Shown here one piece after another: positions 29,964 through 39,247 of a stretch of 64,000 nt of DNA. The DNA comes from a bacterium (lineage in GTDB: Bacteria > UBA8248): NCBI GenBank assembly GCA_965202625.1, contig CBDBBI010000010.1, positions 1,024,001 through 1,088,000 on the forward strand, read 5' to 3'. A program made the translations under genes and the position numbers. How positions within the stretch are numbered: the stretch's first letter is position 1; the number at the start of each line of letters is the position of its first letter. Under the pieces are notes generated by a model. The model saw only the letters and a list, made by a program, of their open reading frames with translations. It was not told the DNA's origin and made no database searches.

Positions 29964-30079
29964 ATAGTCGAAGTCGCTCTCTACTGAGCCGGATAGCCCG
30001 GCCCGGAGAGCGTCTCAGCGATCCTCCCCGTCGGCGATGCACGACGTCGTTCCCCGCAAAATTTTGACCGAGTGCGTCT
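29964..30079 (-). repeat. Degenerate direct copy of the prpE 3' end (37334-37497)
   Basis: ATAGTCGAAGTC..CCGGATAGCCC..CCGTCGGCGATGC..CGTTCCCCG.AAAATTTTG aligns with about 85% identity and a roughly 47 bp deletion. Confidence 0.9.
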
Positions 30080-30355: not shown

Positions 30356-31105
30356 TCATGCAGACCGCCTCGTCTGCTCTGCTGAAATATCCATAATACC
30401 CTGAGATTTCAATACCTCATCTCTGAGGACTACGCCTACAACGTCCAAGACCTGCTTTAACGCAATGCCATTATTATAGGCGGACATTTGCATTGCTTCC
30501 CGTGGTATTTTTTCCGTTAAATCATCAAGGAGATTTTCTTGGGCATACGCAAAGCACATCTCCTGTATTTCGTAGGCATTCTTGTCTTTACCGCTTATTT
30601 GTTCCTTTAATGCTTCTGCATATCCCGAAATCCATTCGTTGATTTGTATTTCTTCAGCAACCCTTTCCCCCAGTTCGCTGAGCCTGCGCGGGCTATCGGA
30701 TTCCGTTGTTTCGGGAGGGGGCAATCGCGAAAAAATAGATTTTATGTCTGCTCGTATTTCCTTTACCTCATTTTTGATTTCGCTTCGTATTGCATTTGTT
30801 TCATTTTTGATTTCCGCTCGTATTGCATTTGTTTCATTTCTGATTTCGCTTCGTATTGCATTTGTTTCATTTCTGATTTCATCTCGTATTTCTTTTGTTT
30901 CATTGCTGATTTCATCTCGTATTTCTTTTATCTGATCTCGAATTTCTCCCATAAATGTCGATATGCTCTCTCCCTTTTCGTTTACTTTTGCAATCCATGT
31001 TGCAGCGCGTATTGCAGCCCATATTGCAAGAGCAAAGAGGACGACAATAATGAGTAATATATTTCCTTTGAAGGCTTCAAGGAGAAATACGTTGATGGAG
31101 CTCAT
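30356..31105 (-). CDS. Membrane-anchored coiled-coil protein with 11-aa repeats
   Basis: N-terminal TM helix, NETNAIRSEI(R/K) repeats, low GC. Confidence 0.7.
   Translation of the reverse strand: MSSINVFLLEAFKGNILLIIVVLFALAIWAAIRAATWIAKVNEKGESISTFMGEIRDQIKEIRDEISNETKEIRDEIRNETNAIRSEIRNETNAIRAEIKNETNAIRSEIKNEVKEIRADIKSIFSRLPPPETTESDSPRRLSELGERVAEEIQINEWISGYAEALKEQISGKDKNAYEIQEMCFAYAQENLLDDLTEKIPREAMQMSAYNNGIALKQVLDVVGVVLRDEVLKSQGIMDISAEQTRRSA
30770..30940. repeat. 33-bp coding tandem repeat, about 5 copies
   Basis: TTT(T/C)TGATTTCGCTTCGTATTGCATTTGTTTCA unit repeated with variation, no spacers. Confidence 0.85.
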
Positions 31106-32390: not shown

Positions 32391-33152
32391 TTAAGAGGTG
32401 AGGAGAGATTTCTCCTGAATGGTTCTTGATGGGTTGATTCCAAACGCTTGAGGCATTTCAGTCCACGTTCTGCCATCCAGCGTTCGACCCGTCTTTTTCT
32501 TGAATACGCCGCCCCATTGCTTGAAGAAAAAAGGCGTGCCGCTGCCCACGCAATTATCCCGAATCTCTCGCGCCCAGTCCGGCTCCATGGGCCTTGCGCC
32601 CGGACCGCTTTCGCCGCCGACGATGACCCAGTCAATGCCGTCCAGATCCAGACTCGGCAAGGGTTCAAGCAGCGGCTCAAGAGAGAGAAACTTCGTTCGG
32701 GCACCCGTTTGCCGGAGCAGGCGCGCCCGGTTCAGAAAATCCGCAGACTCAATGCTCGTCCCCAGCCAGATGTTCGGCGTCCAGCGAAGCCGCCGGCTCC
32801 ACCGGACAGCGCGTCCCGGCCGCTTCGTGAGCACCTGAAACGTGTGCTGGGTCGCGCGGTTCATCACCCCGAACACGGCCTCAAGGAAGTCCAGCGGCAC
32901 CGCTCGGTGAAACAGATCGCTCATAGAGTTCACGAAAACAAGGCGCGGCTTGCGCCACTTCAGAGGCTCTTCCAGAATGGATGGGTGGGTTCTGAGCGAA
33001 AAGCCGTCCGCGTACTTGCGGGTCCCCATCCCCTGGAGCCGCCTCGACATCCGCGCAGCGTAACAATGCTTGCACCCGGGGCTGATCTTCGTGCAACCGG
33101 TAGTCGGGTTCCAGGTGATTTCCGTCCACTCTATGCCGGAAACTTTAGGCAT
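32391..33152 (-). CDS. DUF5131 (phage Gp37/Gp68) family protein
   Basis: IEWT..TWNP.TGC.KISPGC.HCYA, NSMSDLFH, WVIVGGESG, FFFKQWGG. Confidence 0.92.
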   Translation of the reverse strand: MPKVSGIEWTEITWNPTTGCTKISPGCKHCYAARMSRRLQGMGTRKYADGFSLRTHPSILEEPLKWRKPRLVFVNSMSDLFHRAVPLDFLEAVFGVMNRATQHTFQVLTKRPGRAVRWSRRLRWTPNIWLGTSIESADFLNRARLLRQTGARTKFLSLEPLLEPLPSLDLDGIDWVIVGGESGPGARPMEPDWAREIRDNCVGSGTPFFFKQWGGVFKKKTGRTLDGRTWTEMPQAFGINPSRTIQEKSLLTS

Positions 33153-33154
33153 GG

Positions 33155-33895
33155 CTAAATGTGACCCAGAATGTGGCCTGCAATCCGAGTAGCTGGAGCA
33201 ATTCCCCTGGGGTGGCCTACGCAAAACATAAATTCAAATAGCGCCGAATTCTTGGAGTTTTTAAGAGTTCGGGATTTTTCGAGAAACCTGTCTCTAAATA
33301 AGCACTTAAGATTTCTTTTGTATATGGAGGTCAGGCCCCCGACGCCAGAGTCTCTCTCATAATGAAGACCTCCAAATAGATCAGTGTTTTCCTGATACAG
33401 GCCTCTCCATCTCTCATCACCGAATACTTTTGTGAGTCGCTCAGCCCACTTTGGCTCAACTTCCTCGGGCATTCTTGATTTCGGCAACATCCTAGCAACA
33501 GCGGACGTAGGGAAGAGAATCCAGGTATCGAGCACCTTAAGGTTGGCTATCTTTTCAATAGTCGCCCATGCAACTTCCGTGGCGAAGCGCCGCTTCGCCG
33601 CCGCGTCCGCCGCGCAAAACCCGCTGTCGTGGGCCTCCGAGGTTGCCACAATGTGTTCAATGTCCGTCTGGTGCCTGCTGGAAAACGTCCGCCCGGTGTA
33701 TGGCCCATACGTCCGGCCCCCAAGACCGGCAACGATGCGGGCCTCAAGAGATTGCGAATACGGATAGTCGCGCCGCTTGTCGTAGGGTGCGCACCGGTGC
33801 TCGGGTGCGACCACGAGGCCGCGCCAGGTGTCAGCGGCCCACATGGTTGCGGGAGTGAGCGCAACGAGAGCGAAAACGAATATACACAAAATCAC
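33155..33895 (-). pseudogene. In-frame chimera: secreted HNH-type nuclease N-half fused to three-Cys-motif partner (TcmP) C-half
   Basis: Signal peptide and DIEHIVA..EAHDSG, then an abrupt switch at FA to TEVAWATIEKIA..DTWILFP..LKNSKNSALF; GC drops at the junction. Confidence 0.7.
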
Positions 33896-33925
33896 CCTTC
33901 ATCCACCCCCTTGGTGCCGACCGCC

Positions 33926-34246
33926 TTAACGGTTTCCCTCTTTGCATCGAACGCGGTAATAGATTCGGCTGCCCGCAGCGCCGAGGTTATATTCCCGAAT
34001 CACTTTCCGCTCGAAAATCTCGTATCCACCGGGGCACAAGTCGTTGTCAGTGAGGTAGAGCTTGAGCCTCGATAGTCTGTTGGATTCAGCGGAGGAGCTG
34101 TCATGCGGAGTGAGCGGGCCAGCTACCGCCTCGTACTGAAACGTCCCGTCGGACAATGGCCTGAATCTGGTATCGAATATAGTGTCGTGCGCAGAACAAC
34201 CCATTAATGCCAGGAACGCAAAAACGGCCAGGCCTTTCGCAAACAT
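33926..34246 (-). CDS. Small lipoprotein, copy 1
   Basis: GGAGGAGG RBS, lipobox LMGC, CPGGY..C. Confidence 0.8.
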   Translation of the reverse strand: MFAKGLAVFAFLALMGCSAHDTIFDTRFRPLSDGTFQYEAVAGPLTPHDSSSAESNRLSRLKLYLTDNDLCPGGYEIFERKVIREYNLGAAGSRIYYRVRCKEGNR

Positions 34247-34412
34247 CGGCTCCTCCTCCCTCAAAAAGTCCGCGCCATCCAGCACACCTCTCCCAAAACC
34301 TCCGCACCGCGCGGAGGCGGGATGGGCTCCCACGCCGGATGATCGCTCTCCAGAATCCACCGCCCCTCCACCCACACCGCGCGCGGCCACAGCGAACAGG
34401 CTGCAGACCGCC

Positions 34413-34739
34413 TTAACGGTTTCCCTCTTTGCATCGAACGCGGTAATGGATTCTGTGGGCCAAAGCGTCGGAGCCATATTCCCGAATCGCTATCCGCTCG
34501 AAAACCTCGTATCCACCGGGGCACAAGTCGTTGTCAGTGAGGTAGAGCTTGAGCCTCAATAGTCTGTTGGCTTCAGCGGAGGCACTCTTCGGCGGATAGA
34601 ACGGGCCAGCTACCGCCTCGTACTCAAACGTCCCGTCGGACAATGGCTTGAATCTGTGATCGTATCCAGTGATGCGCGCAGTAGTACAACCCATTAATGC
34701 CAGGAACGCAAAAACGGCCAGGCCTTTCGCAAACATCAT
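34413..34739 (-). CDS. Small lipoprotein, copy 2
   Basis: Same framework as copy 1, directly downstream of the repressor. Confidence 0.8.
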   Translation of the reverse strand: MMFAKGLAVFAFLALMGCTTARITGYDHRFKPLSDGTFEYEAVAGPFYPPKSASAEANRLLRLKLYLTDNDLCPGGYEVFERIAIREYGSDALAHRIHYRVRCKEGNR

Positions 34740-34750
34740 CTCCTCCTCCC

Positions 34751-35527
34751 TCAAAAAGTCCGCGCCATCCAGCACACCTCTCCCAACACCTCCGCCCCGC
34801 GCGGAGGCGGGATGGGCTCCCACGCCGGATGATCGCTCTCCAGAATCCACCGCCCGTCCACCCACACCGCGCGCTTGACCAGCAAGCCATCCTCGCCGCG
34901 CACCACGAATATCCGTCCGCTGTGCAGGTGCTTTTTTTTCATGTCAATGAGAATGGAGCAACCCGCCGGCAGCGTCGGCTCCATGGATTCGCCCGCCACG
35001 CGGATGATGCGGCACTGGGCGGCCTCCAGCCCTTGCTCCCTCAGCCACTCCGCGCGAAACGCCAGACGTCCCGCCACCGTCTCGCTGTCCGCCTCCGCAC
35101 CGCCTCCCGCCGCCGCGTCCACCTCCACGATTTCCACGTGACGGAAATGGAAAGCGTCCGTATTTCCGGCGGCCTCCGATTCTGCCGCGTCGCGCAATTT
35201 GTCCAGGGTACCGGCCGCATCGCGCAAGCGGGAGAGCTCCGCATCGAAAGCCTCCTCCAGCATTCGCTTCGCCGAGCCCTCCTGGAGTGCCGCCGCCCCT
35301 GATGCATCGGGCACCCCTGATGCACCGGGTGGGGCGACGAGAGGAAATTCAATGCCCAGAGCTTCGCAAATCTGGGCGGCGCGCCCGATAGAAGGTTGCT
35401 GTCCGTCCAGGATTCCCTGGAAACTTCGCACAGGAATCCCCGCACGCATTGCCGCCGCGCGTACGGACTCACCATTCCTTGCGAGGTGATCACGAACATC
35501 TTTCACAAACCGTTCCCTTACTCCCAT
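34751..35527 (-). CDS. Phage CI-like repressor (HTH plus S24 peptidase)
   Basis: N-terminal HTH, AAAGGG cleavage region, GESMEP Ser, VKR Lys. Confidence 0.9.
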   Translation of the reverse strand: MGVRERFVKDVRDHLARNGESVRAAAMRAGIPVRSFQGILDGQQPSIGRAAQICEALGIEFPLVAPPGASGVPDASGAAALQEGSAKRMLEEAFDAELSRLRDAAGTLDKLRDAAESEAAGNTDAFHFRHVEIVEVDAAAGGGAEADSETVAGRLAFRAEWLREQGLEAAQCRIIRVAGESMEPTLPAGCSILIDMKKKHLHSGRIFVVRGEDGLLVKRAVWVDGRWILESDHPAWEPIPPPRGAEVLGEVCWMARTF

Positions 35528-35528
35528 G

Positions 35529-35618
35529 TGGCAATGTATAGCATATTGTGCCCCCAAATTGCCATTGGCATTATAATGCAAATATGGGCTTGACATCTTG
35601 GCGTAATAAAGCCATATT
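35529..35618. promoter_or_regulatory. Divergent phage switch with three operator-like repeats
   Basis: TGGCAATGTATAGCA, TGGCATTATAATGCA, TGGCGTAATAAAGCC; TTGACA at 35590 with CATATT 17 bp later. Confidence 0.6.
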
Positions 35619-35624
35619 GGCCTT

Positions 35625-35873
35625 ATGACGCCAAACCAGATCATCCACCTTATAGACGTCATGGCCGAGGCGACCGCCCGAAGCCCGCACACGCTCGCCC
35701 GCTACGCTGCCGGCTCCGGAGATTTCTACGCGCGCCTGAAGGTTGGACACGACATCACGACCCGCCGCGCCGCGCGCGTCGTTCAATGGTTCTCCGATCA
35801 ATGGCCCTCCGACCTGGAGTGGCCGTCGGACGTTCCCCGCCCTGTGCCGAAAGCGAAGGAGAGTGCCGCGTGA
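35625..35873 (+). CDS. Cro/Ner-like small DNA-binding protein
   Basis: Divergent from the repressor; WFSDQWPSDLEWPSDVPRP tail. Confidence 0.75.
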   Translation: MTPNQIIHLIDVMAEATARSPHTLARYAAGSGDFYARLKVGHDITTRRAARVVQWFSDQWPSDLEWPSDVPRPVPKAKESAA

Positions 35874-36628
35874 GCGGGTGCGATCTGCGGGTGATAACGG
35901 AGGAATCCCCCCCCGTTTCGCCGGCGAAACAGGCACACGAAGCGCCGCGGCCCCTCTTTCATGAAGGGCTTGGGCGGGATCGCTGGGCGGAGATCGGGCG
36001 CGATCTTTCCCACTGGGCGGAGAACACGCAATGGGAAATGGGAGAATGGGCTCTGTTTGGGGAGGCGTCTTTTGGCGAGAGGACGCTGCGGGAGGTGGCG
36101 TCCGGTCTGAAAATCAGCGCGGGCAAACTGTCCAACTGCCGACTGGTCGCCAAGAATTTCCCCGCGTTTCGCCGGCGAAACGCCTTGAGTTTTTCTCACC
36201 ATCTCGAAGTGGCGCGCCTGCCGCAAGCGGAGGGCGACGAAATTCTCGCCCGCGCCGAGGCGGATGGATGGACGCGAGAGCAGATTCGGAAGGAAGCGCG
36301 CGAAGCGCGGGCGGCGGTGCTGGCGTGCCTGGTGCGCGAGAACGAGGCGCTTCGCGCGGAGAATGCGCGGCTCAAAACCACGCCGGCGGCGGCGAAGGAT
36401 GCGGCGCGCGACCTGGAGAGACGCGCGAAGGCCGCCGCCCGAAAGGTGAGCGCGGCGTTTGCGGACCTCGCGCGGGTACTGGGCGAGGCGGGTGCATCGG
36501 CGGAAATCACAGGTTTGCACGGCAACGCGCGCGCGGCACTCGACGCGCGCCTGAAACGCATCGTGTGCTCGGCTGGAAGGGATGCGGCCGGCGTGCAGAT
36601 GCGCTTCACTTTCGGGGCGGGCGAATGA
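35870..36628 (+). CDS. Phage protein with LmbU-like domain
   Basis: WEMGEWALFGE, RRRNALSFSHHLEVA, ARAEADGWT; GTGA/ATGA overlaps with neighbours. Confidence 0.65.
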   Translation: MSGCDLRVITEESPPVSPAKQAHEAPRPLFHEGLGRDRWAEIGRDLSHWAENTQWEMGEWALFGEASFGERTLREVASGLKISAGKLSNCRLVAKNFPAFRRRNALSFSHHLEVARLPQAEGDEILARAEADGWTREQIRKEAREARAAVLACLVRENEALRAENARLKTTPAAAKDAARDLERRAKAAARKVSAAFADLARVLGEAGASAEITGLHGNARAALDARLKRIVCSAGRDAAGVQMRFTFGAGE

Positions 36629-37284
36629 ATCCCCACGCCCGTGAAACCGCCCAGCAACCCTCTTTCATCGCCCTGGAAACGCCCGAAAAACTCCCTTGCA
36701 ACGACCTGGAAACCGCCTGGAACGCCGCCACGGACGCCCAGAAAGAGCGCGCCGTCAAGCGGCTGCGTGCGGTCGAGCGTTCCGAGGCTTTGGCGGCGGA
36801 GGGGATAGTGCGCGCGGAGGCGGACGGAATAGCGGCACTTGAATGCGGCGCGTCCAAATCCGCCGTCGCCACCTGGCGGCGTCGCGCACGAGGTGCGGGG
36901 CGGGGAGATAGACTGCGCACGCTTCTTGACGCACCGGGGCGCGGACGGCCGCGTGCAGAATGGACGGGCACGGCGGCGGAGACGCTCTGGACGCTGTGGC
37001 GCACGGACTGGCTCCGAGAGGAAGCACCGGATGCGGCGGCGGCACATCGGCGGGTGGAGGCGGTCGCCCAGGCGCGGGGCTGGGAATGTCCGCCCCTCCA
37101 GGCGTTCACCCGCAGGGTGCGGCGCGAGGTTTCCCGCCGCGAAGTCGTACGCGCGCGCAAGGGTGCCCTCGCCGCCATGAACACCTCGCCCCACCAGACG
37201 CGAAGCGTGGAGGCGGGATGGGCTCCCACGCCGGATGATCGCTCTCCAGAATCCACCGCCCCTCCACCCACACCGCGCGCTTGA
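36625..37284 (+). pseudogene. Mu-like transposase N-terminal DNA-binding region, truncated
   Basis: Position after cI/ner, WLREEAP..AAHRR..ARGW, PHQTRSV; ends in foreign sequence before any DDE domain. Confidence 0.65.
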
Positions 37285-37297
37285 CCAGCAAGCCATC
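37209..37297. repeat. 89-bp direct copy of repressor segment 34803-34891
   Basis: Identical except CCCCTCC vs CCCGTCC. Confidence 0.93.
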
Positions 37298-37351: not shown

Positions 37352-39247
37352 CTACTTCCCCGGATAGCCCAGGCCGGCGAGGGTCTCGGCGATCTCGGGC
37401 AGGATGGCCGGGTCGTCAATGGTGGCAGGTGCCTTGTATTCCTCGCCGTCGGCGATGCGCGACATCGTTCCCCGTAAAATTTTGCCCGAGCGCGTCTTGG
37501 GCAGGCGCTTCACCACTGCCGCCTGACGGAATGCGGCCACGGCGCCGATCTGGCGGCGCACGAGCTGCACCACCTCGCCGACGACCTCCGCATCCTCCCT
37601 CTCAACGCCCGACGTCAAGACCAGAAAACCGAGGGGAAGCTGGCCCTTGAGCTGATCCTTCACTCCGATGACGGCACACTCCGCCACGTCGGGATGCGAG
37701 GTCAACACCTCCTCCATCGCGCCCGTGGAGAGCCTGTGGCCCGCCACGTTGATGATGTCGTCCGTCCTCGACATCACATAGACGTAGCCCTCCTCGTCCA
37801 CGTAGCCGGCATCGCCCGTTTTGTAGAAGCCCGGATATTCGCTCAGATAGGAATCGACAAAACGCGCGTCCGCGTTCCAGAGGGTGGGGAGACAACCGGG
37901 CGGCAGGGGCAGTTTGACGCACAGCGCGCCCATCTCGCCCGCACCCAGTGCGCGGCACTCGCTGTCGAGAACCCGAAAATCGTAGCCGGGAACGGGCTTC
38001 GTGGGGGAGCCGTATTTGACGGGCAGATGCTCGATTCCGATGGAGTTCGCCAGCATCGGCCAGCCGCTCTCCGTCTGCCAATAGTGGTCGATGACGGGAA
38101 CCCCCAGCTTATCCTCCGCCCACTGCACCGTGTCCGGGTCGGATCGCTCCCCCGCCAGAAAAAGGGTGCGGAAACAGCCGAGGTCGTAATTTCGCATGAG
38201 TTCAGCGTCCGGATCATCGCGCTTGATAGCGCGAAACGCCGTGGGCGCCGTGAACAAAACCTTCACCCCATGCTCGGAGATGACGCGCCAGAAAGCGCCT
38301 GCGTCGGGCGTGCCCACGGGCTTGCCCTCAAACAGGATGGTCGCGCAGCCGTGGAGCAGCGGCGCATACACGATGTAGGAATGCCCCACCACCCAGCCTA
38401 CGTCGGACGCCGCCCAGAACACCTCGCCCGGCGCCACGCCATACACGTTTCGCATCGACCACTTGAGCGCCACCATGTGGCCGCCGTTGTCTCGAACCAC
38501 CCCCTTGGGCTGTCCCGTCGTGCCCGAGGTGTAGAGGATATAAAGGGGGTCCGTGGCGGCGACGGGAACACAGGCCGCAGGCATCGCGCCCCGCAGCGCA
38601 TCGCCCCATTCGACGTCGCGGCCCTCGATGAGCTCCGCCTCCGCCTGGGCGCGCTGCAGGATGACGCACTTCTCCGGCTTCACGCTCGAGAGGTTGATCG
38701 CCTCATCGAGCAGGGGCTTGTAGGCGATGACGCCCGAGGGTTCCACTCCGCACGAGGCGGATATCATGAGTTTCGGCTTTGCGTCCTCGATCCGCGCCGC
38801 CAGCTCGTTCGGTGCGAACCCGCCGAAGACGACCGAGTGCACCGCGCCGATGCGCGCGCAGGCGAGCATGGAGATCGCCGCCTCGGGTACCATCGGCATG
38901 TAGATGATGACGCAGTCGCCCTTCTCCACCCCCAGGGATTTGAGCGCGCCCGCGAAATGCGCCACCTCGCGCAGCAACTCCCCATAGGTGAACTTTCGGG
39001 CAGGCGCACCCGTGATGGGGGTGTCGTATATCAGGGCGAGTTGATCCGCGCGTCCCGCCTCGACGTGACGATCCAGTGCGTTGTAGCAGGTGTTGACCTC
39101 GCCTCCTGCGAACCAGCGATAGAAAGGAGGGCGGGAATCATCCAGCACCCTCTCCCATCTCTTGTGCCAGTGCACGTCCTCCGCCGCCTCCGCCCAGAAC
39201 GCCTCCGCGTCCAAGAGAGAGCGGGCGTGAACCTCTGCGTAGCCCAT
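37352..39247 (-). CDS. prpE: Propionyl-CoA synthetase
   Basis: YTSGTTGQPKG, RDNGGH, DHYWQTE, RLPKTRSGKILR, PATIDDP. Confidence 0.88.
   Translation of the reverse strand: MGYAEVHARSLLDAEAFWAEAAEDVHWHKRWERVLDDSRPPFYRWFAGGEVNTCYNALDRHVEAGRADQLALIYDTPITGAPARKFTYGELLREVAHFAGALKSLGVEKGDCVIIYMPMVPEAAISMLACARIGAVHSVVFGGFAPNELAARIEDAKPKLMISASCGVEPSGVIAYKPLLDEAINLSSVKPEKCVILQRAQAEAELIEGRDVEWGDALRGAMPAACVPVAATDPLYILYTSGTTGQPKGVVRDNGGHMVALKWSMRNVYGVAPGEVFWAASDVGWVVGHSYIVYAPLLHGCATILFEGKPVGTPDAGAFWRVISEHGVKVLFTAPTAFRAIKRDDPDAELMRNYDLGCFRTLFLAGERSDPDTVQWAEDKLGVPVIDHYWQTESGWPMLANSIGIEHLPVKYGSPTKPVPGYDFRVLDSECRALGAGEMGALCVKLPLPPGCLPTLWNADARFVDSYLSEYPGFYKTGDAGYVDEEGYVYVMSRTDDIINVAGHRLSTGAMEEVLTSHPDVAECAVIGVKDQLKGQLPLGFLVLTSGVEREDAEVVGEVVQLVRRQIGAVAAFRQAAVVKRLPKTRSGKILRGTMSRIADGEEYKAPATIDDPAILPEIAETLAGLGYPGK

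Follow-up and report, generated by a model that had tools for sequence, protein, structure and literature searches.

Why would two neighbouring genes for small lipoproteins differ almost exclusively at sites that change the protein, and what could such genes be for? The pair lies in a window of 64,000 nucleotides, the whole stretch of bacterial DNA analysed here (contig CBDBBI010000010.1, positions 1,024,001 to 1,088,000). The original prediction, made from the letters of the window, explained the pair by strong diversifying selection on a binding surface, in what may be superinfection-exclusion or receptor-binding proteins kept as an allele array after the phage had decayed. We examined the repeat structure of the locus, its read support, selection across further alleles, the protein family and fold, and the surrounding prophage remnant.

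Two lipoprotein genes in a tandem repeat

The genes, designated W_A and W_B, occupy a tandem repeat on the minus strand:

33926..34246, minus strand: W_A, lipoprotein paralog of 106 aa (open reading frame, translation, profile family, short-read and RNA-library contigs)
34247..34384, minus strand: leader of W_A, comprising an RBS (GGGAGGAGGAG) and a dead duplicate of the repressor gene's final ~123 nt (alignment)
34385..34401, minus strand: 17-nt filler at the inter-unit junction (alignment of the upstream regions; bridged by a contig of run X6)
34413..34736, minus strand: W_B, lipoprotein paralog of 107 aa (open reading frame, translation, read support)

Both proteins share the N-terminus MFAKGLAVFAFLALMGC, which comprises a hydrophobic signal and a lipobox, and both conform to the pattern [LVI][ASTVI][GAS]C after that signal, from which acylation is predicted. 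W_A has the lipobox LMGC with Cys17 and two further conserved cysteines, Cys71 and Cys101; W_B has one extra codon just after the lipid Cys. These features show W_A and W_B to be predicted small envelope lipoproteins with a mature part of about 89 aa. The RBS GGGAGGAGGAG lies upstream of both. W_B starts 11-14 nt past the stop codon of a repressor gene on the same strand and has a second in-frame ATG at 34739.

The repeat unit measures 487-490 nt, with copies at ~33915-34384 and 34402-34874; the final ~123 nt of the adjacent repressor gene form its upstream third. Alignment of the copies thus shows a tandemly duplicated unit made up of repressor 3' end, RBS and gene. Because the unit includes that 3' end, W_A is preceded by a dead repressor 3' end and W_B by the live one. 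The leader of W_A differs from the true repressor 3' end (34737-34874) at 5 of 138 nt. The span first singled out, 33926..34739, omits part of the repeat unit. In a promoter and terminator scan of 33000-36200, counts stayed at shuffle level and a weak hairpin at the repressor end was not significant.

The tandem is supported by reads. Run X1, which may be the source sample, yields contigs that agree with unique parts of both copies without a mismatch (33931-34048, 34041-34225 and 34528-34715), and an RNA-library contig of run X6 (34269-34435) bridges the inter-unit junction, so that the support consists of unique pieces and one bridging contig, with no contig across the whole tandem. In RNA-library run X5, both coding sequences (33931-34235 and 34418-34688, 99-100% identity) are the only parts of a 4.4-kb stretch with cover; the repressor, the transposase fragment, the synthetase and the nuclease are all without it, which is not the pattern expected from DNA contamination. 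The RNA-library data are assembled contigs, which carry no levels or transcript ends, from runs that were found using the locus sequence itself. The lack of X6 cover over 34864-37215 is uninformative because the X6 population has units of the type found on contig C8 (described below) and may be devoid of this segment. At 85% likeness, run X3 covers the flanks but almost none of the mature-coding parts, a gap that may reflect more divergent alleles, loss or fragmentation. With a lipobox, an RBS, a profile family, exact short-read support and RNA-library contigs, W_A and W_B are real genes.

Replacement changes dominate the divergence of the pair

The original prediction had counted by hand about 25 replacements and one codon indel against about 2 silent changes, and an exact recount agrees: 25 of 106 aligned codons are replaced, 2 are changed only silently, and there is 1 indel. 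By the Nei-Gojobori method (S 74.8, N 243.2, Sd 2.5, Nd 34.5), dS is 0.034 and dN 0.157, giving an omega of 4.6; the excess is significant in Fisher's test (p 0.005 two-sided for the mature part, 0.0033 one-sided for the whole CDS). The 37 differing nucleotides are distributed 17:17:3 over codon positions 1:2:3. Across 20,000 random placements, three or fewer changes at position 3 had P = 0.00025 and three or fewer silent changes P = 0.010.

The original prediction described the signal peptide and framework as nearly identical at the nucleotide level. The signal peptides are the same in protein, and the 138 nt upstream of the starts are 3.6% apart. This leader divergence is about equal to dS, and replacement sites have therefore diverged roughly five times as fast as the neutral sequence of their own repeat. 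In bacteria, dN/dS seldom exceeds 1 over a whole gene.

A second haplotype extends the selection signal

Besides one main contig of 2.9 Mb, the assembly has nine of 10-24 kb. Eight of these, which align to the main one mostly at 95-99.8% identity, we read as probable strain variants; C4 has no alignment of at least 300 nt to the main contig. Contig C8 is collinear with window positions 15325-39431 and represents a second haplotype of the locus. In place of the repressor, W_B and W_A, it carries three tandem paralogs behind the repressor's last 46 codons, and no repressor, early genes or transposase are present in its array, an arrangement that fits the proposal that the genes were kept after the phage decayed.

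Among the five paralogs (W_A, W_B and the three of C8), pairwise omega exceeds 1 in 10 of 10 comparisons, ranging from 1.2 to 8.1: 4.6, 8.1, 2.5 and 2.1 within arrays and 1.2-1.9 between them, with a one-sided p below 0.05 for 3 of the 10 pairs. Under a Goldman-Yang codon model, omega is 2.55 over the entire gene and 2.88 over its mature part, for only five full alleles on one tree that is assumed despite likely recombination. With omega held at 1 and kappa optimised over 8 grid values, the log-likelihood drops by 5.5 units (2dlnL 11.0, p 0.0009). Variable columns fall 35:30:14 over codon positions 1:2:3. Within arrays, gene conversion may have lowered dS and so inflated omega.

Neighbouring genes served as controls between the haplotypes. 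The acyl-CoA synthetase gene has an omega of 0.16 and a dS of 0.017 over 631 codons; the coiled-coil gene differs at 3 positions in 249 codons, the porin-like gene at 1 in 274, and the nuclease fragment that abuts the array at 0 in 105. The flanking genes are near-identical between haplotypes and under purifying selection, and the array is thus a hypervariable spot between them.

A further C8-like allele comes from an X6 contig, an RNA library of an independent study, with 21 differences from W_A over 34050-34232. The 19 of these 21 differences that are listed change 13 codons relative to W_A, all non-synonymously, and 4 of the 13 lie at the lipobox and resemble a one-codon shift. Diversifying selection, first proposed for the W pair, therefore holds over five paralogs, with stronger support than that pair alone gives. 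At the level of sequence, diversifying selection on the tandem lipoproteins is supported. Public genome, metagenome and viral contig collections yielded no close alleles, a degenerate DNA pattern for DNDLCPGGYE had no match in metagenome contigs, and all 3 hits of a word-index protein search were the own genome's proteins.

An unnamed lipoprotein family and its predicted fold

W_A and W_B match 0 families in Pfam and PHROGs at E <= 0.1 and none in PADLOC, and an NCBIfam scan with a family alignment that includes both returned no significant family. A profile of the five paralogs (hmmsearch against 1.84 billion cluster representatives) retrieves 307 representatives at E <= 1e-3, 41 of them at E <= 1e-10. 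All 307 are about 100 aa long, carry a lipobox and align end to end, and the reverse family profile (A3) recovers all five paralogs at 2e-32 to 5e-29. All 60 sequences of an alignment, the five paralogs included, have Cys17, Glu54, Arg57, Cys71, Arg80, Tyr97 and Cys101 as invariant residues, and Pfam, NCBIfam and solved structures give no significant match for any of them. In the profile search the own cluster reaches 216.8 bits and the closest outside relative 82.9, identity to W_A within the family alignment is 45% at best, and the nearest clusters in the ESM Atlas are unnamed 'hypothetical protein' clusters of Pseudomonadota. By profile matching, W_A and W_B belong to an unnamed, sparsely distributed family of predicted ~100-aa lipoproteins of Pseudomonadota.

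A search of 22 other genomes of the genus found the family in none of them; it is present in 1 of 36 genomes of the same taxonomic family, in 0 of 24 more distant genomes and in none of a further 200 sampled across the class to which one proteobacterial carrier belongs. The lack of finds in these 22 genomes, together with its single-copy state elsewhere, indicates that it was acquired and is not core. At the eight outside loci the gene is single and has ordinary chromosomal neighbours, such as AsmA, a chemoreceptor, NhaA, a Zn peptidase, DUF192 and GGDEF, with no phage genes nearby at 8 of 8 loci examined; in 3 of 3 carriers tested it is single-copy genome-wide. No relatives were found in 50,697 phage records (tblastn) or in viral contigs. 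The ordinary contexts of these distant relatives mean that the family's ancestral role was probably not anti-phage. W_A and W_B share the length, lipobox, predicted fold and seven invariant residues of the family elsewhere, but among the carriers examined the tandem state, the repressor leader and an omega above 1 are peculiar to this organism.

An AlphaFold model built from the family alignment is confident (pLDDT 86, pTM 0.72) and predicts two hairpins packed on one helix (strands 27-30, 36-42, 75-87 and 90-101; helix 51-67). Foldseek with a first, weaker model found no match in PDB or BFVD at E <= 0.001, and VIA-align with the better model over 48,161 chains gave a best Z of 6.8, within the tool's stated noise. 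The fold searches yield only generic alpha/beta sandwiches and no functional lead, and neither they nor Pfam, PHROGs, PADLOC or NCBIfam link the proteins by sequence or fold to any known exclusion protein.

Variation among the paralogs concentrates in residues 18-30 (tether and first strand), 41-52 (pre-helix loop) and 85-96 (last hairpin), and the three patches named originally as clusters of change are indeed the variable ones. The hairpin at 31-35 and the loop at 68-74 are invariant among the paralogs. Paralog-variable positions are also more variable across the family (mean entropy 2.67 vs 1.74, p 9e-5), and many family-variable positions are fixed among the five. From the strand order and topology of the model, we infer that the three variable segments share one end of the sandwich, opposite the invariant loops. 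The notion of a binding surface fares accordingly in part: the tether, the beta2-helix loop and the beta3-beta4 hairpin are placed together at one predicted end, and topology makes it plausible, no further, that this end binds a partner.

Loops that vary in this way might themselves be targets. The lipoproteins could be a phage receptor, or an antigen for an animal host or grazers, so that unrecognised variants are favoured and several copies form a mixed coat. The focus of omega above 1 on loops, the several alleles across different samples and the labelling of the runs holding the locus as sponge and marine metagenomes all agree with such an escape, and by the E. coli rule S or T at +2 after the lipid Cys would direct the protein to the outer membrane. 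A pure liability, however, would be lost and not duplicated, and both copies are found in RNA-library contigs; the place behind a prophage repressor better fits a protective function expressed by the lysogen. We consider escape unlikely.

Array evolution and possible generators of variation

The 17-nt filler of the window recurs at both internal junctions of the C8 array. Since it is identical at window and C8 junctions, the duplication has a single origin and is older than the haplotype split. From the leader of the C8 units 72-75 nt are missing, between short direct repeats; runs X3 and X6 show this joint as well. Paralogs group by array, with 16 informative sites for W_A plus W_B against 1-3 for any cross-array pair, a grouping that points to probable concerted evolution, or to birth and death by unequal exchange. 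Invariant blocks of 33 and 31 nt are present in all five genes.

Three generators of variation were rejected. Like the targets of diversity-generating retroelements, which are ligand-binding proteins, the array varies at codon positions 1 and 2, keeps position 3 and has a phage link; unlike them, it has no reverse transcriptase, no template repeat and no adenine bias. Reverse transcriptase PF00078 has 0 matches in the 99.69% complete genome (control genomes match), blastn of the unit over the genome finds only the five copies and leader fragments, and with any of the copies as template, adenine accounts for only 12-30% of the bases at differing sites. As for silent donor cassettes of the vls/pilS kind, only 3 isolated 16-mers of the five coding sequences occur elsewhere, with ~2 expected by chance. 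Visual inspection of the codon alignment led us to reject a local frameshift as the origin of the patches.

When the two arrays are compared, 16.7% of the codons that keep their residue differ silently in the patches and 2.9% in the framework, a six-fold enrichment. The patches must therefore owe something to old balanced alleles, to imported mosaics or to a local mutation bias. The enrichment is also what a non-adaptive origin would lead one to expect, in which a local mutation process (clustered multi-nucleotide changes, or micro-conversion from divergent templates) acts, under relaxed constraint, together with gene conversion that removes silent differences from the framework. Such an origin would be in keeping with the 10 codons of the W pair that hold two changes each, with the incompatible informative sites, and with the common inter-unit junctions, which make the copies older than the low dS suggests. 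Relaxed constraint, however, should bring omega near 1 and not to 2.5-8, and 8 of the 10 double changes fall at positions 1+2 and none spans positions 3+1, unlike random clustered mutation. All five frames are open and retain the lipobox, both cysteines and the family-invariant residues, and there are neither donor cassettes elsewhere in the assembly nor a reverse transcriptase. We regard a non-adaptive origin as very improbable. The silent excess in the patches and gene conversion weaken the exact omega values without explaining the replacement excess at codon positions 1 and 2.

A prophage remnant in a variable island

The array sits beside the remains of a phage, within an island bounded by direct repeats:

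30022..30079, no strand: left 58-nt direct repeat, 90% identical to its partner; bounds the ~7.4-kb island with the array
34751..35692, minus strand: S24 (LexA/CI-type) repressor, a relative of Mu-type c repressors; start codon uncertain
36652..37204, plus strand: truncated N-terminal piece of a MuA-like transposase (I-gamma DNA-binding subdomain), in ORF 36031-37284
37205..37297, minus strand: third copy of the repressor 3' end, 93 nt, 98% identical; adjoins the acyl-CoA synthetase gene and the transposase piece
37440..37497, no strand: right 58-nt direct repeat, inside the 3' end of the acyl-CoA synthetase gene

The repressor combines an HTH with an S24 domain (Pfam Peptidase_S24 at 3.6e-14; PHROG 4 at 6.6e-24). 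Its best phage matches are the c repressors of RcapMu, of D3112-like phages and of Shewanella and Xanthomonas Mu-like phages, at 29-39% identity among the matches listed, with no record covering at least 80% of the query. The MuA-like piece matches Pfam HTH_Tnp_Mu_2 at 2e-14 (residues 289-392) and the PHROG 310 transposase at 3.8e-19, and its reading frame, 36031-37284, continues into the antisense of the repressor-tail fragment. The c repressor and the MuA-type transposase, now truncated, are divergent on opposite strands, as in a Mu-type prophage. The copies at 37205-37297 and 34799-34891 form direct repeats that flank the repressor-transposase segment, and this segment is absent from the C8 haplotype.

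The statement that the genes lie downstream of a prophage repressor is thus borne out by an S24 repressor nearest to Mu-type c repressors and near a truncated MuA-like transposase. Because each repeat unit includes the 3' end of this Mu-type repressor gene, the lipoprotein genes can be placed in the slot that follows a prophage repressor. The accessory content of this slot varies: on the strand of c, 4 genes separate c from the left end in RcapMu and a single gene does so in RcWaterboi. None of these five slot genes is related to the lipoprotein family.

The island also holds a TcmP-DUF5131 pair, which PADLOC reports as the candidate defence system PDC-M41. A location of this kind would suit an orphan immunity array, in which the paralogs neutralise competitors' periplasm-acting toxins (bacteriocins, contact-dependent or type VI effectors), one variant each, and which grows by duplication in the manner of immunity-gene islands. 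Immunity would match small disulfide-bearing envelope lipoproteins in tandem with omega above 1, and copy number and alleles that vary between otherwise ~99% identical haplotypes. No toxin gene adjoins the array, however, the neighbouring secreted-nuclease piece being a broken hybrid (a PADLOC PDC-M41A match); the leader is a phage repressor 3' end, and family members elsewhere are single and without a toxin partner at the loci examined. We consider an immunity array distinctly unlikely.

Relation to known systems

Prophage lipoproteins with similar positions are known. In the accessible part of the report on the Streptococcus thermophilus phage TP-J34, ltp follows the CI repressor gene on the same strand of the lysogeny module and has transcripts in the prophage, and a few residue changes between Ltp alleles alter which phages get excluded (PMC3952083). 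In likeness to ltp, W_B lies directly 3' of a repressor on the same strand, the units carry the repressor 3' end, and RNA-library contigs cover both coding sequences. W_A and W_B show no sequence similarity to Ltp (0 Pfam or PHROG families; no tblastn match in the phage records). Ltp comes from a Gram-positive host, has 142 aa and a repeat-domain architecture ('first repeat domain') and is a single gene, not an array; the same part of the report gives no dN/dS signal for it (PMC3952083).

Small phage lipoproteins of the Llp (T5) and Cor type are described, in the portion of the preprint available, as acting at the inner leaflet of the outer membrane and blocking further infection (bioRxiv 10.64898/2026.03.26.714494). 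They differ from W_A and W_B in that they bind the host receptor FhuA and are not tandem, Llp being an early lytic gene and not part of a lysogeny operon. For W_A and W_B, no likeness to them was found by Pfam or PHROG family, by tblastn against the phage records, by viral fold match at E <= 0.001 or by solved structure, with the best Z at the 6.8 given above. The Lpp proteins of mEpimmI coliphages are prophage lipoproteins that occur in sequence types, each excluding phages of a given receptor, according to the accessible part of their description (PMC11893012). Lpp differs in lying within the structural gene cluster, one per phage, and in belonging to a different family, and that part does not show in-place duplication as the origin of its types (PMC11893012).

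A full-text literature search turned up no account of tandem lipoprotein arrays under positive selection that follow a Mu-type repressor. New here is the positively selected allele array of an unnamed family; prophage accessory envelope lipoproteins as such are already known.

A proposed explanation

We tentatively favour, at somewhat less than even chances, the explanation that these are lysogeny-operon lipoproteins, kept and expanded by the host, whose three segments are selected for recognising a fast-changing partner, most likely a component of incoming phages. We rank this explanation above each rival, and a non-adaptive process lowest among the rivals. An exclusion or immunity function for W_A and W_B is one that we infer only from position and analogy.

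What the sequence shows is a lipoprotein gene in the accessory slot next to the c repressor of a decayed Mu-type prophage, duplicated in tandem, with selection for amino-acid differences in the three segments driving or holding the copies apart and with signal peptide, framework and leader near-identical. In the proposed explanation the segments would form one face of a beta-beta-alpha-beta-beta sandwich, and this variable face may bind a fast-changing partner that passes through the envelope. By analogy with prophage exclusion lipoproteins, the partner would most likely be a tail-tip or ejection component of incoming phages. Each paralog would cover a different partner variant, and the host would keep the array after loss of the phage. 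The invariant framework probably lets homologous exchange or gene conversion reshuffle the copies or make them more alike. It counts against the favoured explanation that known receptor-masking lipoproteins bind a conserved host receptor and need no diversification.

A bolder proposal, which we hold to be unlikely, treats the array as a germline repertoire of recognition modules: a disulfide-braced scaffold with three CDR-like hypervariable loops, derived from the lysogeny slot of a transposable phage and domesticated by the host. Its specificities would arise through duplication, patch-focused selection and exchange over the 31-33-nt blocks, and each paralog would neutralise a different phage or toxin variant in the periplasm. 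If true, it would add both a new family and a new mode, the allele array, to envelope-level defence.

Omega above 1 in five paralogs and in further alleles from independent samples, beside near-identical neighbours, marks the family as a probable conflict interface, with phages, competitors or the animal host of what is a marine or sponge-associated bacterium. If the favoured explanation is right and the proteins exclude phages, they would form a new exclusion family and a case of a host keeping and expanding a lysogenic-conversion gene after phage decay, and the three-loop scaffold would be a compact, tractable model for the evolution of binding specificity. If they do not, the locus would still be a clean natural case of patch-focused diversification with concerted framework evolution. 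The association of the leader with lipoprotein genes extends beyond the array: a 56-nt copy of it (repressor end and RBS) precedes an unrelated 183-aa lipoprotein at G000:C10:699892.

Alternative haplotypes of the lipoprotein array locus

Two further contigs of the same assembly carry alternative versions of the array locus:

C8:1-22533, a whole alternative haplotype, counterpart of window 15325-39431
C3:1-374, a third haplotype contig, counterpart of window 33953-33581

The C8 haplotype has three lipoprotein paralogs and lacks both the repressor and the transposase. The C3 contig begins within the final 28 nt of a lipoprotein coding sequence, at a point within the array, and departs from the window sequence past 33581. 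The C8 haplotype also differs from the window at a candidate defence pair beside the array:

32391-33895, minus strand, DUF5131 gene and hybrid secreted-nuclease/TcmP gene (PADLOC match)

These genes match components B (DUF5131) and A (the hybrid gene) of the PADLOC candidate system PDC-M41. Codons 1-105 of the hybrid gene are identical in C8, where the sequence differs thereafter: the back half of the hybrid gene and the DUF5131 gene are replaced by a different 1.7-kb insert (C8:17086-18753) containing a 296-aa ORF.

Other genes near the array

30356-31105, minus strand, 249-aa membrane-anchored coiled-coil protein
36031-37284, plus strand, truncated MuA-like ORF

The coiled-coil protein contains five tandem repeats of 33 nt (11 aa; EIRxEIxNETxx), and its matches to ZorA and to coiled coils of tape-measure type are weak. 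The MuA-like ORF continues into the antisense of a 93-nt repressor-tail fragment, and its last ~25 residues are therefore an accident of rearrangement. An ORF overlapping it in another frame (35786-36628) matched nothing.

Family members and a leader copy elsewhere

Lipoprotein family members occur in three Chromatiales genomes:

L016:4833-5906
L018:4782-5906
L013

DUF192 and GGDEF genes lie close to the family member in all three, and a Zn_peptidase_2 gene follows ~10 nt downstream in L016 and L018. These shared neighbours possibly represent conserved synteny, and the neighbourhood offers a hint of the family's ancestral role.

Outside the window, at C10:699892-700503, a 56-nt, 96% identical copy of the leader (repressor end plus RBS) is immediately followed by an unrelated 183-aa lipoprotein gene (MGRTTNGLL...SGC...). 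Its presence there may mean that the leader serves as a portable signal for expression, or that another prophage of this type has left a scar.
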